64,000 bases of DNA from Dehalococcoidales bacterium (GTDB lineage Bacteria > Chloroflexota > Dehalococcoidia > Dehalococcoidales > RBG-16-60-22), in contig JBEKDZ010000003.1 of NCBI GenBank assembly GCA_050014095.1, forward strand, positions 215,700 through 279,699, written 5' to 3'. Each line of letters opens with the position of its first letter. Position 1 is the first letter of the stretch. Under the pieces are notes generated by a model. It searched no databases, was not told where the DNA came from, and saw only the letters and a list, made by a program, of their open reading frames with translations. Of this stretch, positions 31,244 through 52,673 are shown piece after piece. A program made the translations under genes and the position numbers.

Positions 31244-31259
31244 GAAACACTTAAGAGTT

Positions 31260-31298
31260 AACCTCTCCCTTTTGTAAAGGGAGACGGAGAGGGTTTTT
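31260..31298. repeat. hairpin repeat (family B); probably also the terminator of the activase gene
   Basis: TCTCCCTTT-tgt-AAAGGGAGA (31264-31284), with an alternative outer pairing AACCTCTCC/GGAGAGGGTT, followed by TTTTT. Confidence 0.7.
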
Positions 31299-31316
31299 AG
31301 GAAATAGAGAGTTTTT

Positions 31317-31667
31317 ATGCACCCATATAATCCCAAACTAAAGCAACTGTCCCAAGAACTTAGAAAAAATATGACCGATGCTGAAAAACTGCTGTGGTCT
31401 AAGCTTAGAATAAAACAGCTTAAAGGTTTGATGTTCTCACGTCAAAAGCCTTTAGGCGAATATATCGCCGACTTTTATTGCCACCAAGCAAAGCTGGTGA
31501 TTGAAGTCGATGGCGGTCAGCACTTTTCCGATGATTCTATTAAATACGATAAAATCAGAGATGAGTTCATAGGTAGTATGGGGTTGACGGTGCTAAGATT
31601 CACAAATAACGACGTGTTGAATAATATTGACGGTGTTATTGAAGTAATTGAGAGAAATCTCCCTTAA
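31317..31667 (+). CDS. DUF559 (Vsr-like) endonuclease domain protein
   Basis: ADFYCHQAKLVIEVDGGQH...DKIRDEFIGSMGLTVLRFTNNDV is the DUF559 pattern. 116 aa. Confidence 0.8.
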   Translation: MHPYNPKLKQLSQELRKNMTDAEKLLWSKLRIKQLKGLMFSRQKPLGEYIADFYCHQAKLVIEVDGGQHFSDDSIKYDKIRDEFIGSMGLTVLRFTNNDVLNNIDGVIEVIERNLP

Positions 31668-31671
31668 TTAC

Positions 31672-31925
31672 TAAAAACTCCCTTCGTCCCTCTTTACGAA
31701 AGAGGGAGATGGGGAAAGGCAGCTGGATTCCTCCCATTTGCCCATCCCTTCTCCAAATTCGTTTAGTTCTAAAATCCCTCTCTCATCTCCCCTTACGAAT
31801 GGGAGACGATATCATTTTCTAATTCCAAAACAGCTACAACGACAGTCAGTGAGATTGCCACGTCACTTCGTTCCTCGCAATGACAGGGCGGTATTTGCCC
31901 ATTCCTTCTCCAATTTCGTAAAATA
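31672..31925. repeat. cluster of nested hairpin repeats (families A and B) bracketed by a 27-nt direct repeat
   Basis: TCCCTCTTT-acg-AAAGAGGGA (31687-31707), TCTCCC...GGGAGA (31786-31806), GAGATTGCCACG...CTCGCAATGACA (31851-31885). Direct repeats at 31736-31762 and 31893-31919. Confidence 0.8.
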
Positions 31926-31930
31926 GTTGC

Positions 31931-33019
31931 ATGAACAAATCCATCCAGCCCGCTCACCCTGAGCCCGTCGAAGGGCTTTCCTTCCTGGATAGATTTCTTA
32001 CGCTGTGGATATTCCTGGCGATGGGTTTAGGGGTATTGCTGGGGTGGGGGTCGCCGGAAGTTGGCAAATTCATTAACTCCTTAAGCGTGGGCACAACGTC
32101 CATCCCTATCGCCGTCGGTCTCATACTTATGATGTACCCGCCGCTGGCTAAAGTGCGCTACGAGGAGATGGGGCGGGTCTTCCGCAACTGGCGGGTGCTG
32201 CTGCTTTCGCTGGTGCAGAACTGGGTCATCGGGCCTATCCTCATGTTCCTGCTGGCGGTGCTGTTCCTCGGCAAAATCTGGCCGATGCCGGCATACATGT
32301 ATGGCTTGATAATGATAGGACTGGCGCGGTGTATCGCCATGGTCATTGTCTGGAACGAGCTGGCGCAGGGGGACAGGGAATACGCCGCGGGACTGGTGGC
32401 TTTAAACTCCATTTTCCAGATTCTCTTTTACTCCGTTTACGCTTACATCTTCATCACCGTGCTGCCGCAGTGGTTCGGTTTAGCCGGCTCGGCAGTGGAT
32501 GTGACGATGGGGGATATCGCCCGGAGCGTTTTCATCTACCTGGGGATACCGTTTTTCGGGGGGATGTTGACGCGCTTCATATTTTTAAAGACCAAGGGGC
32601 GCGATTGGTACGAGACCAGGTTCATCCCTAAGATAAGCCCGATAACGCTGGCGGCGCTGCTATTCACCATCGTGGTGATGTTCTCGCTCAAAGGCGAGCT
32701 GATTGTGCAGATACCGCTCGACGTGCTGAAGATAGCCGTGCCGCTATTAATCTACTTCGTGATTATGTTCCTGGTGTCCTTCTGGATGGGACGAAGAATA
32801 GGCGCGGATTATTCCCAAACTGCCAGTATCGCCTTTACGGCGGCTTCAAATAATTTCGAGCTGGCGATTGCCGTAGCGGTGGCGGTCTTTGGGATCGGGA
32901 GCGGGGAGGCTTTCGCGGCGGTAATAGGACCGCTGGTAGAAGTGCCGGTACTGGTGAGTCTGGTGAACCTGGCGCTGTATTTCCAGAAGAGGTACTTCAG
33001 GGGAGAAAAGGTGAGTTAA
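31931..33019 (+). CDS. acr3: arsenite efflux transporter, ACR3 family
   Basis: [14 protein letters not shown]-terminus, 10-TM profile, [12 protein letters not shown] motif. Confidence 0.85.
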
Positions 33020-33045
33020 CAGTTATTAGTAATCAGTTAGGGAAA

Positions 33046-33110
33046 AGACGGCTGGATTCCCAATCAAGTTGGGAATAACACTTGGGGGGTAAAGGGGAGG
33101 GGTGTATTCT
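33046..33110. repeat. hairpin repeat (GGATTCCC family) plus a G-rich tail
   Basis: ATTCCCAA-tcaag-TTGGGAAT (33056-33076), related to the hairpins at 50758-50778 and 50682-50701. Confidence 0.65.
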
Positions 33111-33175
33111 TGATTTCAACATCAGCTAAAGATATACTCTAAGCAAGGGTAAAGTATCATCGGGGAGGTAGCAAA

Positions 33176-33913
33176 ATGAAACGTGTTATCTGCATCATCG
33201 GTTCATTAATCTTAATTATGCTCATGCTCGGGCTGGCCGGCTGCGATATCTCGGGTTCTATCGGCACCAACCCCAACCAGACCAGCGGCATCTGGGTAAC
33301 GGGGGAGGGGAAAGTGACCGTTACGCCGGATGTGGCGATACTAAGTGTCGGCGTCCAGACCGAGAATAGCTCCGTAGCCCAGGCGCAGGAGCAAGCTTCT
33401 GTGGCGATGAATGCCGTCCTCAAAGCGCTGAAGGATAACGACATCGCCGATAAAGACGTCCAGACGCAGTACTTCAGCATCTCGCCGGTCAGAAACTACG
33501 TGATGAATACTGGGGAACAAAACATCACTGGCTACCGAGTGGACAACTCGCTAACAGTAAAAATCCGGAAAGTCGATGACGCCGCCAAGATTATCGATGC
33601 CGTTACCGCGGCCGGTGGCAACAATATCGTCATTAACAGTATTTCTTTTACGGTGGAAGACCCTACCACTTACCAGAAAGACGCCAGAGAAAAGGCGCTG
33701 GATAACGCCAAGATGAAGGCTCAAGAGATAGCCACTAAAGCGGGCCTAACCCTGGGTGAGCCGACCTTCCTCAACGAGACCTCCAGTTACAACCCGCCAT
33801 ATTCTGGTATAATGGCTTCGGCCATACCCACCCCAGTGATAGTAGGGTCGTCAGTTAACGCGGGAGAGATAGAAGTAACCGTCTACATACAGGTAGCGTA
33901 CAGCATAAAGTAA
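33176..33913 (+). CDS. SIMPL/DUF541 domain lipoprotein
   Basis: Lipobox LGLAGC. GEGKVTVTPDVAILSVGV...AQAQEQAS pattern of the 26-kDa periplasmic immunogenic protein family. Confidence 0.75.
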   Translation: MKRVICIIGSLILIMLMLGLAGCDISGSIGTNPNQTSGIWVTGEGKVTVTPDVAILSVGVQTENSSVAQAQEQASVAMNAVLKALKDNDIADKDVQTQYFSISPVRNYVMNTGEQNITGYRVDNSLTVKIRKVDDAAKIIDAVTAAGGNNIVINSISFTVEDPTTYQKDAREKALDNAKMKAQEIATKAGLTLGEPTFLNETSSYNPPYSGIMASAIPTPVIVGSSVNAGEIEVTVYIQVAYSIK

Positions 33914-33944
33914 ATATCGATTCTGGAGCAAGGAGAGAGTAAAT

Positions 33945-35045
33945 ATGGCAGTTATAGATTTCGGCGGCGTAAAGGAAGAGGTGGTCATGCGGAGCGAGTT
34001 CTCTATGGAGAAAGCCCGTAAGGTTTTAAAGGATGAAACGATAGCGGTAATCGGATATGGGGTACAGGGACCGGGACAGTCCTTAAATATGAAAGACAAC
34101 GGCTTCAACGTTATCATCGGGCAATCAAAAGACTTCATGCGGGACTGGGACCGGGCGGTGGCGGACGGCTGGAAGCCCGGTAAAGACCTATTCGAGATAG
34201 AAGAAGCAGCCAAACGCGGCACGATTATCGAGATGCTGACCAGCGATGCCTCCCAGCGGTTAATCTGGCCGACTATCAAAAAACAACTAACGGCTGGCAA
34301 AGCGCTGTATTTCTCACACGGATTCTCTATCGTCTATAAAGACCAGACAGGTATTATCCCGCCCAAAGATGTGGATGTTATCATGGTGGCGCCTAAGGGG
34401 AGTGGGACATCACTGCGGCGCAACTTCCTCTCCGGGGCAGGCATTAACGCCAGCTTTGCTATTTTCCAGGATGCTACGGGGCGGGCTAAAGAGCGCTGTC
34501 TGGCGCTGGGTATTGCTATCGGGTCCGGTTACCTCTTCCCGACGACCTTCGAAAGCGAGGTCTACAGCGACCTGGTGGGGGAGCGGGGGGTTTTGATGGG
34601 GGCGCTGGCGGGAATCATGGAAGCGCAGTACGACACCTTAAGAGCCCACGGACACACGCCCAGCGAAGCCTTTAACGAAACCGTCGAGGAGCTGACGGAA
34701 AGCCTGATAAAGCTAGTAGCGGAGAACGGGATGGACTGGATGTATGCTAACTGTTCCGCTACCGCCCAAAGGGGTGCCCTCGACTGGAAACCAAAGTTCA
34801 AAAAGGCGGTCATGCCCATCTTTAAAGACCTTTATAAGAGGGTGGCGAACGGGACGGAAACAAAACGTGTGATTGAGGCCTGCGGCGGAGCTAACTACAG
34901 GGAACTACTGGGCAAAGAATTATCGGTGATGGGCAACTCCGAGATGTGGCAAGCCGGCAAGGCTACCCGCTCTTTACGTCCTAAGGAGCCGGAAAAAGCT
35001 AATATCAAAACGGCTAAAGGGACGGCGGGGAGACAAACGAATTAA
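33945..35045 (+). CDS. ketol-acid reductoisomerase-like oxidoreductase (divergent)
   Basis: IGYGVQGPGQSLNMKDNGFNVIIG (Rossmann), VMVAPKGSGTSLRR, TTFESEVYSDLVGERGVLMG. Same order as KARI motifs but diverged from canonical IlvC, and no ilv neighbours. Confidence 0.6.
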   Translation: MAVIDFGGVKEEVVMRSEFSMEKARKVLKDETIAVIGYGVQGPGQSLNMKDNGFNVIIGQSKDFMRDWDRAVADGWKPGKDLFEIEEAAKRGTIIEMLTSDASQRLIWPTIKKQLTAGKALYFSHGFSIVYKDQTGIIPPKDVDVIMVAPKGSGTSLRRNFLSGAGINASFAIFQDATGRAKERCLALGIAIGSGYLFPTTFESEVYSDLVGERGVLMGALAGIMEAQYDTLRAHGHTPSEAFNETVEELTESLIKLVAENGMDWMYANCSATAQRGALDWKPKFKKAVMPIFKDLYKRVANGTETKRVIEACGGANYRELLGKELSVMGNSEMWQAGKATRSLRPKEPEKANIKTAKGTAGRQTN

Positions 35046-35057
35046 AAATTAATGCTT

Positions 35058-35392
35058 TATTGTCATTGCGAGTCCTTCCGTAGAAGGACGTGGCAATCTC
35101 CCGAATGAATTCACGACGATGATAGAGATTGCCGCGTCATCCCGATTACATCGGGATTCCTCGCAATGACAGTTTTTAATTATTGCGCCTTTCTTATGAC
35201 AAGGTTGCAGCAAAATCTCCCTCCTGTCCCTTCCTTCGGCTTCGCTCAGGACAGGCCTTACGAACGAGGGACGCCAATACCCCAAAAAGGGGTGTTAAAG
35301 AGGGGCATCAGCCCCTCTTAATTGAATATAACCCCCTCTCCAAACATATTAATAACAGGTTTGCTCCCTGTTCCGTTTGGAGAGGGGGCAAG
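35058..35392. repeat. cluster of nested hairpin repeats (families A, C, D and others)
   Basis: TGTCATTGCGAG...CGTGGCAATCTC (35061-35100) faces its inverted copy (35125-35171). Also CCTGTCC/GGACAGG (35223-35255), AAGAGGGGC-atca-GCCCCTCTT (35298-35319), and a 14-bp stem CCCCCTCTCCAAAC/GTTTGGAGAGGGGG with a 29-nt loop (35332-35388). Confidence 0.85.
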
Positions 35393-35469
35393 GGGGTGAG
35401 GCTTAGAGTAGATTCTGGCTTTTTCTGGGACGACACTTTCTCTCATTATTGCGCCTTTCTTATGACAAG
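35179..35469 (+). repeat. perfect 25-nt direct repeat bracketing 241 bp of hairpin repeats
   Basis: ATTATTGCGCCTTTCTTATGACAAG occurs at 35179-35203 and again at 35445-35469, spaced 266 bp. Confidence 0.9.
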
Positions 35470-35515
35470 TGTTAAAATAATATCAAACGATTATTTTCCC
35501 TCAAAGGGGTAAGGC

Positions 35516-36145
35516 ATGTTTACCGGCATCGTAGCAGAAGTAGGGAGTATTGTCTCCGTTAGCGCGGGCAAGCTAACCATCGGCGCCAGGCAGACGCTCA
35601 AGGATTTACAAATCGGCGGGAGCATCGCCGTCAACGGCGTCTGTTTAACGCTGACCGATTTCAATGACAAAACGTTTTCTGTGGACGTCATGCCGGAAAC
35701 ACTGAAAAGAACCAACCTGGGGCAATTGCACGTTGGCGATAGAGTAAATCTGGAAAGGCCCCTTAAGCTTAATGGGGAAATCGGCGGGCATTTTGTGCAG
35801 GGCCATATCGACGACACTGGCAGGGTCGTCCAAATCGCTAAAGAAGGCGAGGCAATGCTGATGCGCTTCCAGGCAGAACCCGAGGTAATGCGTTATATCG
35901 TGCCCAAGGGCTTTATCGCCGCGGACGGGACAAGCCTGACGGTGACCACCAAAGAAGCCAATACCTTCGGCGTATCCATCGTCGGCTATACCCGCGAGCA
36001 TACGATTTTGGCGGAAAGAAAACCGGGCGACCTCGTTAATCTGGAAGTGGACATCATCGGCAAATACGTAGCTGAACTAAATAAAGCACCAAGCACAGGC
36101 TTGACCGCCGAGTTTCTACGCGAGCACGGTTTCATGGTGAACTAA
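35516..36145 (+). CDS. ribE: riboflavin synthase
   Basis: MFTGIV start, duplicated lumazine-binding halves (NGVCLT / DGTSLT). Confidence 0.9.
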   Translation: MFTGIVAEVGSIVSVSAGKLTIGARQTLKDLQIGGSIAVNGVCLTLTDFNDKTFSVDVMPETLKRTNLGQLHVGDRVNLERPLKLNGEIGGHFVQGHIDDTGRVVQIAKEGEAMLMRFQAEPEVMRYIVPKGFIAADGTSLTVTTKEANTFGVSIVGYTREHTILAERKPGDLVNLEVDIIGKYVAELNKAPSTGLTAEFLREHGFMVN

Positions 36146-36154
36146 GGAGAAAAT

Positions 36155-37381
36155 ATGGCACTGGCAACTATACCGGAAGCTATTAAAGATATCAAGGCAG
36201 GCAAATTCGTTATCGTGGTGGACGACGAGGACCGTGAAAATGAAGGCGACCTTGTCATGGCAGCCGAGAAAGTGACAGCGGAATCCATCAACTTCATGGC
36301 TAGATATGGGCGGGGACTTATCTGCATGCCGATGACCGGCGAAAGGCTGGACGCGCTGCGGATACCCATGATGGTAAGCAATAACACGTCGCACTTCGGC
36401 ACGCCATTTTCGGTACCAGTCGAAGCTAGAGAGGGCACTACCACCGGCATTTCGGCGGCGGACCGGGCAAGGACAGTGCAAGTGATGGTCGACACCAAGA
36501 CCAAACCTGAAGACATACTTATGCCGGGGCACATGTTCCCATTACGCGCACGGGAAGGCGGCGTATTGGTACGCACTGGGCAGACCGAGGCGACAGTAGA
36601 CCTTGCCAGAATGGCGAGGCTTAAACCAGCGGGAGTCTGCTGTGAAATCATGAATGAAGACGGTACCATGGCACGGATGCCGCAACTTGAAGTATTTGCC
36701 AAAAAACACGATTTAAAAATAATCAGTGTTGCCGACTTAATCGCTTACCGCTACCGCCACGAGCGATTGGTGACGCGGGTGGCGGAAGCCAAGCTGCCAA
36801 CGAAATACGGTAATTTTAGAGTAATCGCCTACAAAAGCACCACCGACCCCGACGAGCACCTGGCGATGGTGATGGGCGATGTGAACACCGACGAGCCAGT
36901 GTTAGTCCGAGTGCATAGCCAATGCCTGACCGGCGATGTTTTCCACAGCATGCGCTGCGACTGCGGCGAGCAGATCGAAATGGCGATGAAGCGTATCGCC
37001 GATGAGGGGCGGGGAGTCGTGCTTTATATGCGGCAGGAAGGGCGGGGCATCGGTATCCACAACAAGATAAAAGCCTATGCCCTCCAGGATAAAGGACTGG
37101 ATACCGTCGAAGCAAACCTATCGCTGGGCTTCAAAGCCGACCAGCGTGATTATGGCATCGGCGCGCAGATACTCGCCGACCTGGGAATACACAATATGCG
37201 GCTGATGACGAACAATCCCAAGAAAATGAGTGGGCTGGAAAGCTACGGACTTAAGATAACCGAGCAGCTACCCATCACCACCAAGCCCAACCCGCATAAC
37301 CGCCGCTACCTCCGCACCAAGCAGGAAAAACTGGGGCATCTCCTGACCATCGCGGATGCCGATAGCGATAAAACAAACTAA
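36155..37381 (+). CDS. ribBA: bifunctional 3,4-dihydroxy-2-butanone-4-phosphate synthase / GTP cyclohydrolase II
   Basis: [11 protein letters not shown] (DHBP synthase) and [19 protein letters not shown] (GCH II zinc site). Confidence 0.9.
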
Positions 37382-37391
37382 GGAGAATGAT

Positions 37392-37859: not shown

Positions 37860-37914
37860 TTGTTGACTAGTTGTTAGTATAGAGTGAGAAAAGGGGCGGT
37901 TTCTTGACCTTACC

Positions 37915-38130
37915 CCCTACCCCCTCTCCAAACTTGAGTATGAATAATACTGTGTTTGCTATGTTTGGAGAGGGGTTTTTTGTTTCTTAAGAGGGGGCTA
38001 GCGCCCCCTCTTTAACACCCCGGTTGTGGGGAAAAGGGGTGAACCTCTCCCCCTTGTGTTCCCCCTCTCCGTACACAGAGAGGGGAAGTAATTATAAAAA
38101 CCCTCTTAATCTCCCTTTACGAAAGGGAGA
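37915..38130. repeat. cluster of hairpin repeats (families C, D, B) downstream of ribH
   Basis: 13-bp stem CCCCTCTCCAAAC/GTTTGGAGAGGGG with a 29-nt loop (37921-37975) followed by a T-run. Also AAGAGGGGGC-tagc-GCCCCCTCTT (37989-38012), CCCCTCT/AGAGGGG (38062-38085) and TCTCCCTTT-acg-AAAGGGAGA (38110-38130). Confidence 0.85.
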
Positions 38131-38299
38131 GACTGGCAAAGGTAACAGAACCCAGTCTTATCAGAACTATGCCCTAGAATATGGGAATAGAATATGTCTA
38201 TATCACGATTACTCTAAAGAACACCATGTGAACGCTAAGGCGATAAAGCAGATGCACACCGACTTTAGCCCGATTGCCGGTCTAGCGTTATCGGCTTAA

Positions 38300-38332
38300 C
38301 AGAAATAAATAACAACAAACCGAGGCTCGGTT
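38300..38332 (-). terminator. rho-independent terminator of the membrane-protein gene
   Basis: AACCGAG/CTCGGTT hairpin (38318-38332), followed on the minus strand by TTTGTTGTTATTTATTT. Confidence 0.55.
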
Positions 38333-38338
38333 GCGTCC

Positions 38339-38875
38339 TTAGGGTTTAGTTGTCGTAGGAGGAGATGATGTTGACTTAGTTGGACGCGTAGCGAAGTACA
38401 TGACAACCGTGAAAAGGAAACCGCCAATATACAAGAGCGCGGGGACTAATACGGGTGACGTGTCACGGTCTATCCAAACTATTGCTAACCCACCGATGAA
38501 AAACATACTACATCCCAGCCAGACCTTGTTGCCTTCCTGTTTGAAGCTTATTTTGTCGTGTAGGATTATAAAGGCTATTGCTGAAATTACACTAGCCAAC
38601 ACTCGAAAGGCTCCTGCGACAGCGAATGCATAAGCCATTCCTTCCGGTATACTTGTTAGTGTGATTTTGAGGCCGGATTGGGACCATCCGTTTGAGATTG
38701 TTAGCCAGGCAAAGCCCATAACGATTAAGCCTGATGCAGCGCGTACGATGTTCGTGATGCGCCGTTGTTTTGCGGTCAAGTTCACGGGGTTGCTACTCGT
38801 GTCTGATATTAGTGTAACGAGATTGTCCAGGGCGATGGCGAGCCCCGACACTATAAATACGTACCAAGGGTTCAT
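38339..38875 (-). CDS. hypothetical membrane protein (5-6 TM)
   Basis: 178 aa, hydrophobic segments throughout, no recognised motif. Confidence 0.5.
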   Translation of the reverse strand: MNPWYVFIVSGLAIALDNLVTLISDTSSNPVNLTAKQRRITNIVRAASGLIVMGFAWLTISNGWSQSGLKITLTSIPEGMAYAFAVAGAFRVLASVISAIAFIILHDKISFKQEGNKVWLGCSMFFIGGLAIVWIDRDTSPVLVPALLYIGGFLFTVVMYFATRPTKSTSSPPTTTKP

Positions 38876-39382: not shown

Positions 39383-39481
39383 GTCATTGCGAGGAGTCCC
39401 GATAAAATCGGGACGACGTGGCAATCTCCATCATTGGTTTTGTTCTGACATAGGGATTGCCACGCTTCGCTCGCAATGACA
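39383..39481. repeat. composite palindrome made of two inverted family-A units
   Basis: GTCATTGCGAGG-[GTCCCGAT aaa ATCGGGAC]-GACGTGGCAATCTC (39383-39428) faces GGGATTGCCACG...CTCGCAATGACA (39453-39481). Confidence 0.85.
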
Positions 39482-40507: not shown

Positions 40508-40518
40508 AAGAAATATCA

Positions 40519-40751
40519 AGATACAAGATACAATAACCAAACAATACTCAAAAAATCAAAGGACAAACAAAATCCTTCTCATTCTCCCTTTATAAAAGGG
40601 AGACGATATTGTTTTCCTTAACAAGCATCGCTTGCAGCCCATTCGCTTGTCCCTCTTTCGCAAAGAGGGTTTACCCTGAAGACTCACCCTGAAGGGAGAA
40701 AGGGAGATTTTGTTTCACCCTCACCCTTCCCTCTCCCATCAAGGGAGAGGG
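40519..40751. repeat. cluster of hairpin repeats (family B variants) plus the AAGATACAATAACCAAA motif
   Basis: CAAGATACAATAACCAAA is also present at 50650. Hairpins: TCTCCCTTT-ata-AAAGGGAGA (40583-40603), CCCTCTTT-cgc-AAAGAGGG (40651-40669), CCCTCTCCC-atcaa-GGGAGAGGG (40729-40751). Confidence 0.8.
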
Positions 40752-40786
40752 TTTAGAGAAGAGGACTGGTTAAAACTCTAATCTAA

Positions 40787-43913: not shown

Positions 43914-43949
43914 AAGACTCCGGTTCTCAACTAATTTAGTTTTTTAGTT

Positions 43950-43983
43950 CCCCTTCCCCTACCCAGCGGAAGGGGATTTTTTT
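43950..43983 (+). terminator. rho-independent terminator/attenuator between rplT and pheS
   Basis: CCCCTTCC (43950-43957), 10-nt loop, GGAAGGGG (43968-43975), then ATTTTTTT. Confidence 0.65.
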
Positions 43984-45052: not shown

Positions 45053-45128
45053 TGTCATTCTGAGCGAAGCGAAGAATCCGCTTGAATAGAATAGAGATTC
45101 CCACGTCGCTTCGCTCCTCGGAATGACA
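45053..45128. repeat. 76-bp palindromic repeat (family A variant) inserted between pheS and pheT
   Basis: TGTCATTCTGAGCGAAGCGA (45053-45072) pairs with TCGCTTCGCTCCTCGGAATGACA (45106-45128). Confidence 0.85.
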
Positions 45129-45146
45129 GTTGAACAGGATAATCGA

Positions 45147-47558
45147 ATGAAAGTCCCATTAAAGTGGCTTAAGGATTATGTAGAGGTAACGCTACCGATA
45201 CCGGAACTAGCGGAAAGACTAACGCTGGCCGGATTCGAGGTAAGCGAAATTATCACCACCGGCGGCAGCTGGGATAATATAATCATCGGGGAAATAACCG
45301 CCATTAATCCCCACCCCAACGCCGACCGCTTAAAGCTGGCAACTGTCAATCTGGGAAAAGAGCAAGAGACGGTCGTCTGCGGCGCTCCCAACCTGACTAA
45401 AGGCGATAAAATAGCTTTTGCCAAAGTAGGCGCGCGCCTGACCAACCCGGAAAACGGCAAAGTCGAGACTCTTAAACCCGCCAAAATACGCGGCGTGGAA
45501 TCCAAAGGCATGATTTGCTCGGAGAGAGAGCTCGGTATCTCGGAAAGTCACGAAGGGATTTTAGTCCTGGCCAAAGGGGCGGAGGTAGGCACCGCGCTGG
45601 CGGATTTCATGGGCGATACGGTGCTGGACATCGATATCACCGCCAACCGGCCGGACGGGTTATCCGTGATTGGGATAGCGCGAGAAGTGGCGGCGATATG
45701 CGGGCAGAAATCTCATATTCCAGAAATCAAATACCCAGAAACGGGCGATTCTATTGAAAAACAGATAGCCATCGAGATTATCGATAGTGAGCTTTGTCCG
45801 CGGTACTGCGCCAGCCTCATCACCAACGTCAAAATAAGAGAGTCGCCGGCGTGGCTGCAGGAAAGGCTGATAGCCTGCGGGCAGCGTCCCATCAATAATA
45901 TCGTCGATATCTCCAACTACGTTATGCTGGAGTACGGGCAGCCGCTCCATACCTTCGACTACGAAAAGCTCAAGGGCAAGAAAATCGTCGTCAAACGGGC
46001 GAAAGACGGTGAGAAATTTATTACCCTCGATGCTAACGAGCGCCAGCTTGCTGGCGACATGCTGGTCATCGGAGACGGCGAAAGAACCGTCGCCATTGCG
46101 GGTGTCATGGGCGGACTGAACAGTGACGTGACGGAAAGTACAACATCCATCCTGCTGGAAGCCGCCAGCTTTAAAGCAGCCAGCCTGCACTACACCAGCC
46201 GCAAGCTCGGCTTGATGAGCGAAGCTTCGGCCAGGTTCGAGCGGGGCATCAGCGCGGGGCTAACGCTACCCGCCCTGAAACACGCTACCCAGCTTATCGC
46301 CGAGCTGGGCGAAGGCAAGATAGCCAAAGGAATTATCGACGTTTACCCGGGTAAAAAAGAGCCTAAGCCGATTACCGTGAGGGTAGAAAGAGTCAAGCGT
46401 CTCCTCGGCATTGAATATAGCGTCAAACAAATAGTGGGCGCGCTGGAAGCTCTCGGCATCGAGTGTCAAGCGGATAGCGCTAAAGTGAGCGCTACCGTCC
46501 CTTACTGGCGCAGCGATATTAAGATAGAAGAAGACCTCATCGAAGAGATGGCGCGCGTCTACGGCTACGATAAAATCCCGACCACGCTGCTGGCTGATGA
46601 AATACCCATACCTGATCCCGCACTGGATATTAGGTTGAAGAAAAACATTAGACGCAGCCTCGTCGGTTTCGGCTTCCAGGAGGTTATGACCTACACCCTG
46701 ACCAGTCTGCAAGCTTTGAGCAATACCGTTGCCGAACCGCATCCACCGGAGCCAATGCCCGTGCATATCGTCAACCCCATGACCGCAGAGCAAGAATATC
46801 TGCGGTCCAGCCTGCGCGCCAATCTTCTAGCAACATTGGCAATTAACCGACGTCACGATGATGGCGGTATCAGACTATTTGAAATAGGTAAGATATACAT
46901 ATCAAGAGGGAACGACCTGCCAGAAGAGCCGGAAATACTGTGCGGTCTGATGCACGGCAGCCGGGTGGAGAGGTCGTGGCTGGGGGGCGACAGCGCTTAC
47001 GATTTTTACGATGTCAAGGGGACGGCGGAGGGACTTTTCCAAAAACTGGGCATCGACGTATCCTTTGAATCCGGCAACGACGAGGGACTGCATCCCGCAC
47101 GGCAGGCAGCCATCATCGGGAAAAACGACGGGAAAAAGATAAGGCTGGGTGTCCTCGGGGAGCTGCACCCGAAGGTGGCCGACGCTTTCGAGATTGAAGG
47201 TACGGCCTGTCTTTTCGAGGTGAGTATCCAAGCGCTGCTACCTTGCATTACCAGAGAAAAAATATATCAACCGATACCCCGCTTCCCCAGTACCGTCAGA
47301 GACCTGGCGCTGGTCGTCGATGCCGATGTGACCAACCAGCAGATACTGGACGTCATTAAAAGCTTCAAGCTGATTAGCGAAGTAATTCTGTTCGATGTTT
47401 ATGCCGGCAAGCAGGTGGCAGAAGGCAAGAAGTCGCTCGCCTACCGGCTGGTCTACCAATCGCTCGACCAGACCCTGACCGACGAGACCGTCAACAAGGT
47501 GCAGGAGCAGGTGTTGGCCAAGCTCACCAAAGAGTTTGGGGCGACGCTAAGGCAATAA
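45147..47558 (+). CDS. pheT: phenylalanine--tRNA ligase beta subunit
   Basis: MKVPLKWLKDYV canonical N-terminus, tRNA-binding, B3/4, B5 and FDX-ACB regions. The track start at 45123 lies inside the repeat, so the start was moved to ATG 45147. Confidence 0.9.
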   Translation: MKVPLKWLKDYVEVTLPIPELAERLTLAGFEVSEIITTGGSWDNIIIGEITAINPHPNADRLKLATVNLGKEQETVVCGAPNLTKGDKIAFAKVGARLTNPENGKVETLKPAKIRGVESKGMICSERELGISESHEGILVLAKGAEVGTALADFMGDTVLDIDITANRPDGLSVIGIAREVAAICGQKSHIPEIKYPETGDSIEKQIAIEIIDSELCPRYCASLITNVKIRESPAWLQERLIACGQRPINNIVDISNYVMLEYGQPLHTFDYEKLKGKKIVVKRAKDGEKFITLDANERQLAGDMLVIGDGERTVAIAGVMGGLNSDVTESTTSILLEAASFKAASLHYTSRKLGLMSEASARFERGISAGLTLPALKHATQLIAELGEGKIAKGIIDVYPGKKEPKPITVRVERVKRLLGIEYSVKQIVGALEALGIECQADSAKVSATVPYWRSDIKIEEDLIEEMARVYGYDKIPTTLLADEIPIPDPALDIRLKKNIRRSLVGFGFQEVMTYTLTSLQALSNTVAEPHPPEPMPVHIVNPMTAEQEYLRSSLRANLLATLAINRRHDDGGIRLFEIGKIYISRGNDLPEEPEILCGLMHGSRVERSWLGGDSAYDFYDVKGTAEGLFQKLGIDVSFESGNDEGLHPARQAAIIGKNDGKKIRLGVLGELHPKVADAFEIEGTACLFEVSIQALLPCITREKIYQPIPRFPSTVRDLALVVDADVTNQQILDVIKSFKLISEVILFDVYAGKQVAEGKKSLAYRLVYQSLDQTLTDETVNKVQEQVLAKLTKEFGATLRQ

Positions 47559-47582
47559 CCAATAACCAATCGGAGAGTTCTT

Positions 47583-47709
47583 AAGAGGGGCTAACGCCCC
47601 TCTTTTTATTTCACCCCCTTCCTTTGGCAAAGGAAGGGGGACAGGGGGATAGATTACTTATAGAAACAAAAAGGGCGAGGACGGATTCTTCACTGCGTTC
47701 AGAATGACA
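47583..47709. repeat. hairpin repeats after pheT; the first one doubles as a terminator
   Basis: AAGAGGGGC-taac-GCCCCTCTT plus T-run (47583-47607), 12-bp stem CCCCCTTCCTTT-ggc-AAAGGAAGGGGG (47614-47640), GGATTCTTCACTGCGTTCAGAATGACA (47683-47709). Confidence 0.8.
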
Positions 47710-47721
47710 GCGAGTCCATTC

Positions 47722-47759
47722 TTGACAAAAGATATTTGTTCCCTTATACTATCAGTATA
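47722..47759 (+). promoter_or_regulatory. promoter with an inverted repeat overlapping the -10 element, upstream of the abrB-like/arsM genes
   Basis: TTGACA (47722-47727), 17-nt spacer, TATACT (47745-47750). TATACT-atc-AGTATA is a perfect inverted repeat (47745-47759). Confidence 0.5.
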
Positions 47760-47800
47760 GTCTGATTTTTCTGAATTTTCTGTTTATTAAGGAGGCATCA

Positions 47801-48067
47801 ATGGCTAAGGAAGAGAAGAATAGCTTCTGTTCTCCCGCAGGGTGCTGTAAGGTGGAGGCGGTAGTGAGTGTTGATGAAAGAGGGCAGATGATATTGCCTA
47901 AGGAGCTAAGAGACAGAGCCGGTATACATGCCGGTGATAAGCTGGCCGTGGTCAGTATGGATCAAGACGGCAAAACCTGCTGTCTTTCTTTAATTAAAGT
48001 CGAATCGATAACGAACATGGTTAAAGACATGCTCGGGCCGGTAATGGAAGAAGCATTCAAAAAATAG
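47801..48067 (+). CDS. AbrB/MazE/SpoVT-type DNA-binding protein with an N-terminal Cys cluster
   Basis: ERGQMILPKELRDRAGIHAGDKLAV is the SpoVT-AbrB swapped-hairpin motif. Preceded by CSPAGCC, and a second CC lies at KTCCLS. Confidence 0.7.
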   Translation: MAKEEKNSFCSPAGCCKVEAVVSVDERGQMILPKELRDRAGIHAGDKLAVVSMDQDGKTCCLSLIKVESITNMVKDMLGPVMEEAFKK

Positions 48068-48081
48068 AAAGAGGCAATGAA

Positions 48082-48918
48082 ATGAAAGGCACTGAAATAA
48101 AAAGGTCAGTTAGAGAAGGTTATGCTAAAATCGCCAAGGAAGGCGGCTCCTGCTGTGATAGCAGCACTAAAGCCTGTGGCTGCAACAGTAGTCAATCTGC
48201 TAAAGATATCAGCCAGAGTATCGGCTACTCCGAAGAAGATGTCAATAACGTGCCTGATGGAGCCAATCTGGGGCTAGGGTGCGGCAATCCTATCGCACTG
48301 GCTTCTTTAAAAGAAGGCGAAACGGTGCTCGATTTGGGGTCGGGGGCGGGGTTCGATTGTTTCCTAGCGGCGAATAAGGTCGGTAAAAAAGGCAGGGTCA
48401 TCGGGGTGGATATGACGCCGGAGATGCTGGAAAAAGCCCGGGAGAACGCCATTAAAGGCAAATATACCAACGTAGAGTTCCGCCTCGGTGAGATAGAGTC
48501 GTTACCCGTGGCCGATAGCACGGTGGATATTATCATTTCAAACTGCGTAATCAACCTATCCGTAGATAAAGAGAGGGTTTTTAAAGAGGCTTTCCGCGTG
48601 CTTAAGCCGGGAGGCCGCTTAATGGTTTCCGATATCGTCTTAACCAAACCCCTCCCCGATGTTGTCAGGAAATCCGTCCAGGCTTACATCGGCTGCGTGG
48701 GAGGAGCGATGCTGGAATCGGACTACCTGGGGGCTATCGAAGGGGCGGGATTCGTTAACGTAAGGGTAGCCGACGAGGGAGGCATCGATGCGGACTCGCT
48801 GGAGAATGACCCGTTGGCATCATCAATAGCAGAGAGCTCTGAATTAACGCCCGACCAAATGCGTGACCTGGCGCGCTCGATAAAGAGCATCAGGGTATCC
48901 GCTGGTAAACCTAAATAG
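48082..48918 (+). CDS. arsM: arsenite S-adenosylmethionine methyltransferase
   Basis: VREGYAKIA, Cys-rich GGSCCDSSTKACGC, GETVLDLGSGAGFDCF, LKPGGRLMVSD. Confidence 0.85.
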   Translation: MKGTEIKRSVREGYAKIAKEGGSCCDSSTKACGCNSSQSAKDISQSIGYSEEDVNNVPDGANLGLGCGNPIALASLKEGETVLDLGSGAGFDCFLAANKVGKKGRVIGVDMTPEMLEKARENAIKGKYTNVEFRLGEIESLPVADSTVDIIISNCVINLSVDKERVFKEAFRVLKPGGRLMVSDIVLTKPLPDVVRKSVQAYIGCVGGAMLESDYLGAIEGAGFVNVRVADEGGIDADSLENDPLASSIAESSELTPDQMRDLARSIKSIRVSAGKPK

Positions 48919-48935
48919 AATAAAGCGGGGTCGAT

Positions 48936-49676
48936 TTAATCCCATCTAAAGAAGCGTGCCGCCAGCAGCGCTGAGACGACCGTAATCCCTACCGTGATTA
49001 AAGACGCGCTGGTATACCAATCAAAACCGAGCCAAGGGTTCTGCAGCGTGTAGATTACCCAATGCAGCGGCGTTATATTCCCGATTACCTGCATCGCGCT
49101 GGACATGACTTCCATCGGCGGCCCGGCGCCGCCAAGTATCATCATGATAAAGAAGAGCAGCATCCCTACCCCCTGGGCAGAACGGGTGGAGGGTAATACC
49201 GCGCCGAGGAAAAATCCAAAGCAGGTAAAGCATACCGTACCCATTACAAAAGCCACCACCAAAAGCCCGGGGTTAACCGGCCAATGGGGCGAATAGGCTA
49301 CCTTACCCATTATGGTTACCAGGATGCTGCCGGCTATCGCAATAACAAAGCTTACCAGCAGCTGCGAACCTAGTACCGACCATACGGAGAAAGACGACGC
49401 CCTAAAACGCCGCAGTATGCCGCGTTCGCGGTAGCCGGCCAGGTGCACGGGCAGCGCCACGGTGCCGATAGCCATCATTATCAGTCCATAATAGGACGGC
49501 ATGTAGTAATCCATAGGACCGACGCCGCGGTAAATATCCGGACTAGGTGTGTTACCAAAAACCCCACCCATTACGAAGAGGAAAATGATGGGTAAAGCGA
49601 GCGTAAAGACTACCGTGATAGGCTCACGGATAAAGAGCTTGATTTCCACCCAGGTCAGTTTAAACAATGTACTCAT
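48936..49676 (-). CDS. ABC-2 type transporter permease
   Basis: 246 aa, 6 TM, directly downstream of the ATPase gene. Confidence 0.7.
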   Translation of the reverse strand: MSTLFKLTWVEIKLFIREPITVVFTLALPIIFLFVMGGVFGNTPSPDIYRGVGPMDYYMPSYYGLIMMAIGTVALPVHLAGYRERGILRRFRASSFSVWSVLGSQLLVSFVIAIAGSILVTIMGKVAYSPHWPVNPGLLVVAFVMGTVCFTCFGFFLGAVLPSTRSAQGVGMLLFFIMMILGGAGPPMEVMSSAMQVIGNITPLHWVIYTLQNPWLGFDWYTSASLITVGITVVSALLAARFFRWD

Positions 49677-49685
49677 TCAAATTCA

Positions 49686-50594
49686 TCATTCCGCAGCGGA
49701 GTGACCCGTCACCTTCAAGAAAACATCCTCTAAAGACGGCTGCTCAACGCGAAGGTCGGACGGCACGATACCGTGCTCGACCAGCGCCGCCGCTACTAAA
49801 GCCAACAGCGGACCCGTGCCTGCAACTTCGACTTGCTTACCTCTATGGCTGATTCTTTTCACACCGGCTACTTTCTTCAGCCAGGCAAGGTCGGTTTTAT
49901 CCGTGGAGAAAATAACACGCACCGCGGTGGCATGACTGGCAACAAGACCTTGCGGACTATCTGAAGCAACGATTTTGCCTTTATCGACGATGGCAACGCG
50001 GTCGCAAAGGTTTTCCGCCTCATCCATAAAGTGGGTGACCAGCAAGACGGTGGTGCCCCTATCTCGTACAGAGCGAATCAGGTCCCAGGCGACGCGGCGG
50101 GCGGCGGGGTCGAGACCGGTGGTCATTTCATCCAGAAAAACGACCTCCGGATTATTTACCAGCGACAGCGCGATAAATAGTCGCTGTTTTTGCCCGCCGG
50201 AGAGACTGGCAAAGCTGGACTTTCGTTTATCGGCTAGTCCCCACTGCTCCAGAAGGACATGCCAATCTAAAGCCTTAGAGGCGACCGAGGCAAAGAGGTC
50301 TAAAGCCTCCCAGGCCTTGATGCGGTCAGGCAAGGCTGATTCCTGAAGCTGTGAGCCGATACGACGACGTAGCTCCTGGGCATCACGTAAGGGGTTAAGA
50401 CCAAGCACGCGGATATCACCGGAATCGGGATGTCTTAAAGCCTGAAGGCATTCCACCGTGGTAGTCTTGCCGGCGCCATTGGGGCCGAGGATACCGAAGA
50501 TTTCACCTTTAGTGACTTCGAAAGAGATATCATCGACGGCAACAGTTTTGCCATAGGTTTTACGGAGGTTTTGGACGGATATAATTGAAGGCAT
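49686..50594 (-). CDS. ABC transporter ATP-binding protein (DrrA/ABC-2 exporter type)
   Basis: GPNGAGKTT, LSGGQKQRL, VFLDEMTTGLD. Confidence 0.85.
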   Translation of the reverse strand: MPSIISVQNLRKTYGKTVAVDDISFEVTKGEIFGILGPNGAGKTTTVECLQALRHPDSGDIRVLGLNPLRDAQELRRRIGSQLQESALPDRIKAWEALDLFASVASKALDWHVLLEQWGLADKRKSSFASLSGGQKQRLFIALSLVNNPEVVFLDEMTTGLDPAARRVAWDLIRSVRDRGTTVLLVTHFMDEAENLCDRVAIVDKGKIVASDSPQGLVASHATAVRVIFSTDKTDLAWLKKVAGVKRISHRGKQVEVAGTGPLLALVAAALVEHGIVPSDLRVEQPSLEDVFLKVTGHSAAE

Positions 50595-50648
50595 TTAAGG
50601 TTAATTATAACGGAGAATAGAAGTAGATTTCAATAAATAACCAATAAC

Positions 50649-50828
50649 CAAGATACAATAACCAAATAGGAAACTCTAACCATTCCGATGTAAATCGGAA
50701 TCCAGTGAGACGGAGTTGCTTTAATTGCCGCAATCGCTGCTAACTTTATTGAGCTGGATTCCCGATCAGGTCGGGAATGACGTGGTTTTTAGGCTTTTTA
50801 TCAAACGTCATTCCCGCGAAGGCGGGAA
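50649..50828. repeat. cluster of hairpin repeats (GGAAT-type)
   Basis: ATTCCGAT-gtaa-ATCGGAAT (50682-50701), ATTCCCGA-tcagg-TCGGGAAT (50758-50778), TTCCCGC-gaag-GCGGGAA (50811-50828), plus the AAGATACAATAACCAAA motif. Confidence 0.8.
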
Positions 50829-50849
50829 CCCAGAGGGGAAAAGGGGTGG

Positions 50850-52541
50850 TTAAATACACGCTTTTATCTTCTTAATTATCTCCGCCAGCGGCACGATTTC
50901 CGAATCTTTTTCCGCGCGTTTTTTAAGCTCCACGCTGTCTTTCTCTAAAGTGCGGGGGCTGACGGTAACGCGGAAAGGTACGCCGATTAAGTCAGCGTCG
51001 TTGAACTTTACGCCGGCGGATTCAGTACGGTCGTCGAAAAGCACCTCAATGCCAGAAGCTTGAAGGTCGGCATAAAGCTTTTCGGCAACCTCGCTTACTT
51101 TAGAGTTCTCACGATACAGCGGGCAGAGATAGATGTGGTAAGGCGCGATAGCCGCGGGCCAGATAATGCCTTTATCGTCGTGGTTTTGCTCGACAGCGGC
51201 CGCCAGCAAACGACTGGGTCCCAAGCCATAACAACCCATTACAATAGGATGAGAGTTACCCTTTTCATCAATATAGTTTGCACCGAACTTGACACTATAA
51301 ATCGTACCCAGCTTAAAGATATGGGCAGCCTCGATGCCACGCTTGGACGTAAGCTTACCGCCGCAATTAACGCATTTATCTCCCGCGCGAGCCGATACAA
51401 TATCGGCTACGATATCCGCCTTAAAATCACGCGGGTAGTTAACGTTTTTCAGGTGGGTATCCGGCTTGTTGCCGCCGGCGACGAAATTTACACCGGATGT
51501 TACAGAATCGTCGGCAATGACTTTAATACCCTTTAACCCTACCGGTGAAGCGAAACCAGCTACGATACCCGCGGCAGTAATCTCAGCCTCGGTAGCCAGA
51601 CGCAGGTCGGCGCAATGCAGCTGGTTCTTAAGCTTGGTTTCGTTAACCGCAAGGTCGCCGCGGATGACGCCGAAAACAAATGAGCCATCGGCGATATAGA
51701 AGACGGCTTTAAGGGTTTGAGAGGGAGGCACCTTAAGAAAACCAGCTACTTCCTCGATGGACTTCATACCGGGGGTGGCGATTTCCTCCATAGGGAGGGG
51801 TTTGCCGGTATCGATTTTCTCCTTTACGCTAATCGCTTTTTCGCCGTTGGCGGCGTATTGACATTTCGGGCAATAGATAACCTCATCTTCGCCGGTATCG
51901 GCGATAACCATGAACTCACGGGAGTCCTTACCGCCGATAGCGCCGCTATCCGCCTCGACGACCATAACCGGCAAGCCGCAGCGTTTAAAGATATTCTGGT
52001 ATGCCTGGAGTATTTTATCGTAAGAGATATCCAGTCCGGCTTCGTCGATGTCAAAGCTATAGGCGTCCTTCATGGAAAACTCGCGCGCCCGGACCAAGCC
52101 GCCGCGGGGCCTAGGCTCATCGCGGAACTTGGTCTGTATCTGGTAAAGCATGAGGGGTAAATCGCGGTAGCTCTGGGCATAGCGCGATACCAGCGTGGTA
52201 ATGACTTCCTCATGGGTAGGGCCAAGAGTCAGCTTGCGCTCCCGCCGGTCGAAGAGGTGAAAGAGGACGTCATTCATCGTAAGGTCACGCCCGGAGGTCA
52301 CCCAGAGGTCATTGGGCTGTAGAATCGGCATATGCAGTTCCTGCCCGCCGATTTTATCCATCTCGTCGCGGACGATGGCTGATATCTTTTCTAACGACCG
52401 CCAGCCCAGCGGCAGGTAGGAATAGACGCCCGCCATGAGCTGGTTGATTAAGCCCGCCCGGACCATCAACTGATGCCCGATAGTATCCGCATCGGCGGGG
52501 ACCTCTCTTACCGTTTTGCTAAGCAGCTTTGAAATGCGCAC
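50850..52541 (-). CDS. proS: proline--tRNA ligase (bacterial type with INS editing domain)
   Basis: 563 aa. FRDEPRPRGGLVRAREF, the INS region, and a C-terminal anticodon-binding domain. Confidence 0.9.
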   Translation of the reverse strand: MRISKLLSKTVREVPADADTIGHQLMVRAGLINQLMAGVYSYLPLGWRSLEKISAIVRDEMDKIGGQELHMPILQPNDLWVTSGRDLTMNDVLFHLFDRRERKLTLGPTHEEVITTLVSRYAQSYRDLPLMLYQIQTKFRDEPRPRGGLVRAREFSMKDAYSFDIDEAGLDISYDKILQAYQNIFKRCGLPVMVVEADSGAIGGKDSREFMVIADTGEDEVIYCPKCQYAANGEKAISVKEKIDTGKPLPMEEIATPGMKSIEEVAGFLKVPPSQTLKAVFYIADGSFVFGVIRGDLAVNETKLKNQLHCADLRLATEAEITAAGIVAGFASPVGLKGIKVIADDSVTSGVNFVAGGNKPDTHLKNVNYPRDFKADIVADIVSARAGDKCVNCGGKLTSKRGIEAAHIFKLGTIYSVKFGANYIDEKGNSHPIVMGCYGLGPSRLLAAAVEQNHDDKGIIWPAAIAPYHIYLCPLYRENSKVSEVAEKLYADLQASGIEVLFDDRTESAGVKFNDADLIGVPFRVTVSPRTLEKDSVELKKRAEKDSEIVPLAEIIKKIKACI

Positions 52542-52574
52542 GCGAGGCTCCTTTTTCTTAAAATCCCCCTTGGT

Positions 52575-52652
52575 CCCCCTTTTTCAAAGGGGGAAACGCG
52601 GAGGAAAACGTATTTATAAAATCTCCATTAATCCCTCCTTACGAAGGAGGGA
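52575..52652. repeat. two family-B hairpin repeats upstream of proS
   Basis: CCCCCTTT-ttc-AAAGGGGG (52575-52593) and TCCCTCCTT-acg-AAGGAGGGA (52632-52652). Confidence 0.8.
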
Positions 52653-52673
52653 AGGAAAAACATTCTACCACAC

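Follow-up and report, generated by a model that had tools for sequence, protein, structure and literature searches.

The stretch analysed here is a 64 kb window of a Dehalococcoidales assembly (contig JBEKDZ010000003.1, positions 215,700 to 279,699), and the repeat counts below refer to this window and not to the whole source genome. The proteins of the window have their best homologues in metagenome-assembled genomes (MAGs) of Dehalococcoidales and Chloroflexota. The region from 27 to 56 kb carries housekeeping genes, including those for a CoA-enzyme activase, a DUF559 protein, an SBF transporter, a SIMPL protein and ilvC. The gene order continues with ribE, ribBA, ribH and BioY, then thrS, infC, rpmI, rplT, pheS and pheT and, further downstream, an AbrB/MazE-like gene, a methyltransferase, an ATP-binding cassette (ABC) transporter, proS and ispG. 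The intergenic DNA between 31 and 53 kb contains at least two widespread kinds of short hairpin repeats and a few ordinary terminators. Both kinds have been described before: Kind 1 comprises CGTC-tagged repetitive extragenic palindromes (REPs), and Kind 2 comprises BoxC or BoxC-like units. What is new is that, across bacteria, BoxC-like units bracket DUF559 genes in a conserved manner. Three relatives with syntenic gene order were used for comparison, namely L082, L083 and L084, with RibBA proteins 95, 94 and 91% identical; a fourth, L348, is partial.

Perfect hairpins (stem of at least 8, loop of 3–12) number 31 in the window, against 8.3 ± 3.1 (maximum 15) in Markov shuffles. Most of them (24) lie within 31244–52673, and 20 of these fall in its 3,248 nt of intergenic DNA. 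The original prediction, made from the sequence alone, sorted such hairpins into five families, A to E. All the sites it listed are present, with coordinates correct to within 3 nt according to sequence readings and the hairpin and CGTC scans; its count of eleven occupied gaps becomes 12 of the 21 gaps between called genes at 31.2–52.7 kb that hold a perfect hairpin or a repeat unit. The five families had to be regrouped: A and E are one superfamily, B, the variant at 40729 and C share a design, and C and D form one composite. The reported absence of the families from the first 31 kb was borne out objectively for two of them. The covariance model R1, described below, gives nothing at E < 0.1 in 1–31 kb or 53–64 kb, and the scan for CGTC-type units finds nine between 31854 and 50781, with two further matches inside coding sequence at 26.5 and 29.8 kb (shuffle expectation 2.4). 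Rfam, at gathering and permissive thresholds, holds no family for the units and returned only two tRNAs and three sub-threshold chance matches, while a literal search of papers for the repeat sequences matched only primers. CRISPR or integron-like arrays were ruled out, the spacing being irregular and no integrase being found among the scanned genes.

Kind 2 units consist of a pyrimidine tract (Lo), its repetition 2–4 nt later as the 5′ arm of a hairpin (Li) and the matching purine tract as 3′ arm (Ri). Family B, the 40729 variant and family C share this three-segment, pyrimidine-first design, like BoxC of E. coli. Family B proved longer than the 21-nt hairpin first seen and comprises Lo (AAAAyCCyyCTy), 2–4 nt, Li (TCyCyCTTT), a 3-nt loop and Ri (AAAGrGrGA). 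R1 was trained on 56 units that flank DUF559 genes in other organisms, with none taken from the window. It retrieves seven full units in the window at 24.6–53.1 bits (E ≤ 7e-6) and two hairpin-only matches, all within 31262–52654. The DUF559 gene stands between two inverted B units in the order (Li-loop-Ri-Ro) gene (Lo-Li-loop-Ri), and the extra segments, GAGAGGGTTTTT upstream and AAAAACTCCCTT downstream, both face the gene. Kind 2 is the cognate flanking repeat of this gene. The unit at 38096–38132 shares 89–92% identity with the units beside the DUF559 genes of the window and of the relative L221. A pyrimidine-first bias was also considered as a signal of strand orientation and was dropped, because such a hairpin reads identically on both strands.

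The element at 40713–40752 follows the BoxC pattern CACCCTCACCCY-nn-CCCTCTCCC-n4-5-GGGnGAGGG, is nearly identical to published BoxC and is also found in several IMG/VR loci. The other pyrimidine-first units of families B and C, with arms TCTCCCTTT, TCCCCCTTT and CCCCTCTCCAAAC, do not follow that pattern; these families are BoxC-like and not BoxC, and only the three-segment architecture is common to them. Family C has the form CCTCACCCCCT-nn-CCCCCTCTCCAAAC, a loop of 28–31 nt, then GTTTGGAGAGGGGG. C and D hairpins together make a single composite of about 114 nt, which is present twice in the window and once in L083. The first copy is made of the D hairpin (AAGAGGGGC n4 GCCCCTCTT), the C hairpin (14-bp stem, 29-nt loop) and the outer segment GGGGGTGAGG. 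Family C occurs in more than 120 metagenome contigs, and a D-like hairpin lies no more than 70 nt from 78 of 124 C units.

The DUF559 product is predicted to be a Vsr-like PD-(D/E)XK nuclease. Its Pfam match to PF04480 has an E-value of 2.4e-37 (127.6 bits, cut-off 20.6), and the only related solved structure, PDB 3HRL (E 6e-28), is an uncharacterised ‘endonuclease-like protein’ of N. gonorrhoeae. The residues D52, E63, D65 and H69, invariant in 20 homologues, are kept. YcjD detects Vsr by profile comparison and has been placed beside it in the PD-(D/E)XK superfamily (Kosinski et al. 2005, PMC1189080). Few homologues turn up on plasmids, in 39 of 72,556 records that are mostly chromids or mislabelled chromosomes, or among phages, in 2 of 50,697. 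The gene is single-copy and chromosomal, which is the pattern described for REP-associated tyrosine transposases (RAYTs). Neither a link of DUF559 or ycjD to BoxC or hairpin repeats nor a functional study of DUF559 nuclease activity was found in the searchable literature, subscription literature being outside the search.

The association of gene and hairpin was studied in 80 loci of DUF559 homologues, 47–77% identical and taken from one genome per species. They span more than 12 phyla, including Chloroflexota, Nitrospirota, Desulfobacterota, Bacteroidota, Planctomycetota, Zixibacteria, lineages of the candidate phyla radiation, Cyanobacteria and Firmicutes, with isolates of Acinetobacter, Thiocystis, Bibersteinia, Mannheimia, Rivularia and Pedobacter among them. 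A perfect pyrimidine-first hairpin occurs within 200 nt of the gene in 57 of the 76 upstream and 57 of the 78 downstream flanks, and on at least one side in 73 of the 80 loci. The rate is 74% for the ends of DUF559 genes against 3.7% for the ends of other long open reading frames (ORFs) in the same loci; with an intergenic hairpin rate of 9.3% per 200 nt, the association has p of about 1e-82. The upstream consensus, tCCCCCTTT-NNN-AAAGGGGGg-n3-aGGGGgattt, typically ends about 5–20 nt before the start codon, and the downstream one, aaAAtCCCCCc-n3-cCCCCCTTT-NNN-AAAGGGGGg, often starts at the stop codon. The geometry is constant, the upstream and downstream consensus mirror each other and even the non-stem flanking sequence of the units is conserved across phyla. 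In 26 of 39 cases, a solo hairpin matches those that flank the gene of its locus (14.1 ± 2.5 under permutation; none of 2000 permutations reached the observed value). In the closest relatives, a two-hairpin module of about 85 nt stands on both sides of the gene.

More distant homologues, 43–55% identical, also have BoxC-type hairpins beside the gene in E. coli, N. gonorrhoeae, Synechocystis and Azospirillum. A BoxC unit forms the 3′ end of E. coli ycjD and encodes the C-terminal residues ..SPSPQPSP (L227, NZ_CP023142.1, 1161–1750), and two more units precede fabI. The BoxC 48-mer of the ycjD end is found at a median of 16 places per E. coli genome. The suspected tie of the hairpin families to the DUF559 gene is strongly supported for family B alone.

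The overall best explanation, to which we assign a probability of about 55%, is that two kinds of repeat are present and that the DUF559 gene is bracketed by Kind 2 and is the candidate mobiliser of it. By analogy, DUF559 may act on BoxC-like hairpins as RAYT does on REPs. The single-copy DUF559 protein, a Vsr-like PD-(D/E)XK enzyme, would recognise and nick extruded or single-stranded units, and host replication or repair would then copy the units into new intergenic sites. Such a process would parallel the mobilisation proposed for REPs and REPINs (paired REP sequences) by RAYT, with a different nuclease fold. A wider claim, which we put forward only tentatively and hold to be on balance doubtful, is that DUF559/YcjD forms a second, independent class of single-copy chromosomal nucleases maintaining and spreading their own BoxC-like repeats in most bacterial phyla, by means of a Vsr-type PD-(D/E)XK fold where RAYTs have the HUH fold; E. 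coli BoxC would then be the product of YcjD.

Several observations weigh against DUF559 as the mobiliser. Among 5426 complete E. coli genomes, ycjD is present, as a single copy, in 3378 (62%) and BoxC-like 48-mers in 4911 (90%), so the repeats persist without the gene; the hairpin upstream of E. coli ycjD is a different one, not BoxC. The class of the hairpin arms does not track the similarity of the DUF559 proteins (355 of 2000 permutations reach the observed value, not significant), and specific co-evolution is therefore not demonstrated. The L082 genome has a flanked DUF559 gene (L220), yet its 20-kb syntenic stretch has no B unit. Loci selected for family C show no DUF559 enrichment, with one match in 622 kb. 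Identical DUF559 proteins have one genomic context each, and so no recent transposition of the gene is seen. In L035, a WOR-3 locus, a tandem array of 38-nt units encloses the gene together with a differing 3′ unit of its own, an arrangement that fits a passenger gene at least as well as a mobiliser.

The latter possibility, that DUF559 is a selfish homing-type gene inserting beside or between pre-existing BoxC-like hairpins that spread otherwise, is in our view unlikely. Besides the L035 array, the incomplete presence of ycjD in E. coli and the arm classes that do not follow the protein tree, it would suit several loci in which both flanking hairpins are identical, the loop included in direct orientation, since these could be a duplicated target. 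It would also suit the differing position of the gene between close relatives, where orthologues 84–90% identical occupy different genomic contexts. A homing gene is less easily reconciled with identical proteins never being at two different sites, with the near absence of the gene from plasmids and phages and with loop relations that vary between loci (direct, inverted or unrelated), and no pair of empty and filled sites for the DUF559 gene was recovered.

The features of the window are listed in Table 1.

Table 1. Repeat units, terminator-like hairpins and associated genes of the window.
Feature	Position	Strand	Basis and remarks
B unit, 18 nt upstream of DUF559 start codon	31262..31298	-	R1 43.4 bits, E 3.7e-12
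DUF559 (YcjD-like, Vsr-fold) predicted endonuclease gene, 116 aa, looks intact	31317..31667	+	Pfam PF04480
B unit, 5 nt downstream of DUF559 stop codon	31673..31709	+	R1 45.5 bits, E 7.3e-13
Solo B unit, one stem mismatch	31772..31808	+	R1 24.6 bits, E 7e-6
CGTC/TGTC-tagged REP unit (family A)	31854..31884	-	CGTC scan: T-GTCATTGCGAG..GGCAAT-CTC
Degenerate CGTC-type hairpin ATTCCCAA/TTGGGAAT	33056..33076	.	Tag GTT, not GTC; tail CCA
Facing CGTC-type pair, differing inner hairpins	35062..35170	35062-35097 +, 35128-35170 -	DNA fold -9.4 kcal/mol, z -4.6
25-nt direct duplication (35179-35203, 35445-35469) around 241-nt unit block	35179..35469	+	Carries -35 region of rib promoter
C+D composite	35289..35402	+	Fold -19.3 kcal/mol, z -7.8
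Second C+D composite, inverted	37908..38021	-	Sequence; corresponding gap 9-16 nt in L083 and L084
Hairpin CCCCTCTC n8 GAGAGGGG, then solo B unit (38096-38132)	38062..38132	+	R1 47.2 bits, E 2e-13
Facing CGTC-type pair	39383..39480	39383-39425 +, 39456-39480 -	Sequence and CGTC scan
Solo B unit	40569..40605	+	R1 43.7 bits, E 2.9e-12
B-type hairpin without outer segment	40651..40669	.	Hairpin scan; R1 E about 1e-3
BoxC element CACCCTCACCCTT-CCCTCTCCC-atcaa-GGGAGAGGG	40713..40752	+	Matches published E. coli BoxC sequences
Hairpin and T7 between rplT and pheS	43949..43976	+	Sequence and position kept in L082, L083, L084
Facing CGTC-type variant pair, stems ATTCT/AGAAT and ATTCC/GGAAT	45054..45127	.	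Between pheS and pheT
D hairpin, then T-run	47583..47604	+	Top terminator-like site
12-bp pyrimidine-first hairpin, then GGGGGAT (B-type)	47614..47640	.	Hairpin scan and R1
CGTC-type unit (TGTC-ATTCT..AGAAT-CCG)	47685..47708	-	CGTC scan
Three CGTC-type hairpins (family E)	50682..50830	50682-50701 degenerate; 50758-50781 -; 50807-50830 +	Family definition PMC3733652
Two solo B units (52560-52596, 52618-52654)	52560..52654	+	R1 53.1 and 39.3 bits, E 2e-15 and 8.5e-11
RAYT-like Y1 transposase gene, HUH and Tyr motifs	62465-63013		Protein-family scan

Families A and E form one superfamily, the CGTC-tagged REPs of Di Nocera et al. 2013. The published definition comprises an unpaired 5′ tag (CGTC, or else TGTC or CCTC), a stem of 8–9 bp that opens with A-T pairs, a 4–5-nt loop, a CCA tail and the formation of dimers, and the superfamily includes dRS3 of Neisseria and RPE-4/-6 of Rickettsia (PMC3733652). 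The units at 50758–50781 and 50807–50830 fit every published feature, with a CGTC tag, an 8-bp stem starting AT, a 4–5-nt loop and a CCA tail. The general layout of Kind 1 is a GTC tag, a basal stem ATTnn/nnAAT, an optional internal loop, a variable apical hairpin and a tail. Nine units of the window share the form (C/T)GTC-ATTnn...nnAAT-C; the base before GTC is C or T in all nine, and in 160 IMG/VR units it is T in 123 and C in 27. The 5-bp basal stem covaries (ATTGC/GCAAT, ATTCT/AGAAT, ATTCC/GGAAT and ATTCCCGA/TCGGGAAT), and the units often stand in facing pairs, as inverted dimers (35062/35128, 39383/39456 and 45054/45097).

Family A, with a stem of only 5 bp (ATTGC/GCAAT), an internal loop, a variable apical hairpin and a CTC tail, is for these reasons a variant of the CGTC-tagged REPs. 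It is present in more than 120 IMG/VR stretches. The description of a conserved outer arm with a swappable inner hairpin is true of this family: 160 exact-arm units from 120 stretches contain 101 different inner parts of 8–38 nt, which retain the capacity to form a hairpin and about half of which fold significantly better than their shuffled versions. The 11-mer GTCATTGCGAG forms facing pairs in 6 of 80 unrelated loci, where about 0.2 are expected by chance; the loci come from Chloroflexota, Planctomycetota, LCP-89 and Elusimicrobia. In clustered ORFs near 207 units of 80 IMG/VR loci, no recurrent nuclease or transposase was found as a mobilising gene for family A, and only phage structural genes recur, often those for capsid and scaffold. 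No mobilising enzyme has been identified for Kind 1, as in the literature, where no dedicated transposase was found for CGTC REPs (Di Nocera, De Gregorio and Rocco 2013, PMC3733652). In a further locus, L017, a gene (4458–4900) whose translation, read by eye, resembles a 23S rRNA intervening-sequence (four-helix-bundle) protein lies between family A pairs and is interrupted by a facing pair of B units.

The hairpin families of 31–53 kb could also be mobilised in the classical REP/REPIN manner by the Y1 transposase of the window, but this appears quite improbable. The gene is RAYT-like, with HUH and Tyr motifs, the facing pairs of family A resemble REPINs and, as for REPs, no target duplication is seen when filled and empty sites are compared. 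Nevertheless, flank readings, R1 and the CGTC scan detected no A, B or E unit beside it. The hairpin associated with it is of the GTAG type (GTAGGGGCGGGTT..AACCCGCCCCTAC) and lies inside the ORF: a perfect, in-frame 13-bp hairpin at 62765–62793 encodes VGAGLKPAPT. Homologues have 0, 1, 2, 3 or more copies of this peptide at exactly the same position, after the HUH motif and before the next helix, and RAYT ORFs therefore harbour REP-like hairpins in variable number. Hairpins of the same type stand solo after ilvC in L083 and L084. Families A and E carry the tags CGTC/TGTC and family B is untagged; in the window, only the hairpin of the RAYT ORF starts with GTAG; the literature found no tyrosine transposase for the CGTC superfamily, and no transposase recurs beside the family A units of the IMG/VR loci. 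With no flanking units and with a GTAG-type hairpin of its own, the RAYT receives no support as the agent spreading A, B and E, and the link to RAYT raised in the original prediction is not supported.

The gaps between genes were compared with those of the relatives, L348 covering only the ilvC–ribE gap of the five. Between pheS and pheT, the window has 88 nt by ORF call (112 nt to the start at 45147) with a CGTC pair, L082 and L083 have 1 nt each and L084 has 80 nt with a B unit and a TGTC unit. The gap from the EF-Tu-D2-like gene to a 71-aa ORF holds a family A pair in the window, one unit and another element in L082, nothing in L083 and a single unit in L084. After ribH there are 1,175 nt in the window, 1,700 nt with four small ORFs in L082, 9 nt in L083 and 16 nt in L084. 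Three BoxC-like units occupy the BioY–thrS gap of the window and none that of L082, L083 or L084. In the ilvC–ribE gap, the window has a family A pair and the 241-nt block enclosed by a 25-nt direct duplication; in L082 the gap is interrupted by an inserted gene, in L083 and L084 it measures 121 nt each, with one GTAG-type hairpin and without the facing pair 35062–35170, and in L348 it has a different set of units. With R1, L084 yields two units, whereas L082 and L083 yield none. The units are thus not fixed in position and are insertion-polymorphic between close relatives, and their mobility is supported, because orthologous gaps are empty or otherwise filled; complete positional conservation, named with the original prediction as a refutation, is not observed among these close relatives. 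This agrees with the original prediction of dispersed non-autonomous repeats and not ordinary terminators, as do the scarcity of T-runs and the recurrence of the units in unrelated genomes; that the system is active or recently active remains unproven. At the borders of family A pairs, comparison of filled and empty sites revealed no short target duplication.

Such polymorphism makes it highly improbable that the hairpins are fixed, immobile RNA or DNA structures of convergent origin, such as terminators, mRNA 3′ stabilisers or attenuators. A few hairpins do behave in this way. The hairpin at 43949, absent from the original list of sites, is followed directly by a T-run and keeps its position in all four genomes; it appears to be a terminator or attenuator and not a mobile unit. 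The D hairpin at 47583, the only convincing site of the terminator scan, is probably the pheT terminator. Terminators had been proposed after ribH, pheT and the activase gene. A T-run does follow the C hairpin after ribH, as it does the D hairpin after pheT, but the TTTTT after the activase gene belongs to the B unit segment GAGAGGGTTTTT. The location of family A near capsid and scaffold genes in IMG/VR contigs would also suit terminators or stabilisers. Against fixed structures in general, most units, among them most of families A and B, have no T-run, Rfam has no match for them, non-stem flanking sequence is conserved across phyla and one insertion falls into the 1-nt pheS/pheT gap. An artefact of metagenome assembly by collapsed repeats or chimeric joins is scarcely conceivable: although the window comes from a short-read k141 contig, the same families and gene–hairpin layout are found in isolates (E. 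coli, Acinetobacter, Neisseria, Synechocystis and Azospirillum) and on megabase-sized contigs, and the gene order is syntenic with three independent assemblies.

Some further observations concern the surroundings of the units. A promoter segment of 25–35 nt (TTATTGCGC..TTATGACAAG) is duplicated around units both in the window (35046–35515) and in L348 (593–976), where the duplication encloses different repeat units; L083 and L084 have a single copy of the 25-nt rib promoter segment. Rfam returned no flavin mononucleotide (FMN) riboswitch upstream of the rib operon at any threshold. Within the 241-nt block, 35227–35270 is a further dispersed hairpin (CCTGTCCCTTCCTTCGGCTTCGCTCAGGACAGG) with matches in the unrelated loci L028, L089, L206 and L207. 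A 178-aa ORF without a Pfam match (38339–38875, minus strand) follows ribH, and the stretch with this ORF is a small variable islet adjoining the repeat cluster. An A/T-rich motif (CCAATAACCAA / GATACAATAACCAAA) stands directly after stop codons at 40508–40550, 47559–47572 and 50620–50670 and at corresponding places in L084 and L221. Six tandem repeats of 261–264 nt, 63–90% identical, lie at 6403–9618 inside a 1071-aa ORF. The idea that short RibBA contigs end at repeats through assembly breaks was rejected, as both contigs checked end inside genes.

The repeats were also said to generate spurious ORFs, and they give rise to false start codons as well. In pheT, the first ATG of the ORF, at 45123, is part of a repeat unit (GGAATGACA), and the start homologous to those of L082 and L083 is the ATG at 45147 (MKVPLKWL). 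Repeat units can thus create false N-terminal extensions, which has consequences for the annotation of MAGs. In a broader context, BoxC has been on record in E. coli since the 1990s with neither an origin nor a function assigned to it, and the very widespread DUF559 family has a solved structure but no known substrate. The gene-plus-hairpin layout across more than 12 phyla connects these two orphans and makes DUF559 a testable candidate enzyme for an old repeat family, a question that can be addressed in E. coli.

Among known systems, REP/REPIN–RAYT (Nunvar 2010; Bertels and Rainey 2011; Ton-Hoang 2012) follows the same logic: a nuclease gene that is single-copy, chromosomal and inherited vertically has cognate hairpins at its flanks, and these are dispersed intergenically and often form inverted dimers. 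In the present case, the nuclease flanked by B units is a Vsr-like PD-(D/E)XK protein in place of an HUH/Y1 transposase, a GTAG head is missing from the units and the RAYT of the window itself is unflanked by these families. Vsr and 3HRL share the fold family of the DUF559 protein; Vsr nicks T:G mismatches in CCWGG and accompanies a cytosine methyltransferase, whereas no methyltransferase adjoins the DUF559 gene of the window. A short target-site duplication, as in miniature inverted-repeat transposable elements (MITEs), is not seen at the family A pairs when filled and empty sites are compared; a 25-nt duplication upstream of ribE surrounds the whole 241-nt block.

The CGTC-tagged REPs share with the window their tag, dimers and the lack of a transposase and, with its units at 50758 and 50807, also the AT-start stem, 4–5-nt loop and CCA tail; family A differs in having only the 5-bp basal stem, an internal loop (GAG / CGTG) and a CTC tail. 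Family A here extends to Chloroflexota and many IMG/VR contigs, beyond the mainly alphaproteobacterial range described. BoxC of E. coli, a 56-bp repeat family of about 20–30 copies, has the same three-segment layout, CACCCTCACCCT-aa-CCCTCTCCC-loop-GGGAGAGGG, and its units, like those of the window, are intergenic and dispersed, one of them overlapping the 3′ end of ycjD. Most family B units are distinguished from it by the arms TCyCyCTTT/AAAGrGrGA, a 3-nt loop and an AAAA-prefixed outer segment, and family C by its loop of 28–31 nt and the attached D hairpin.

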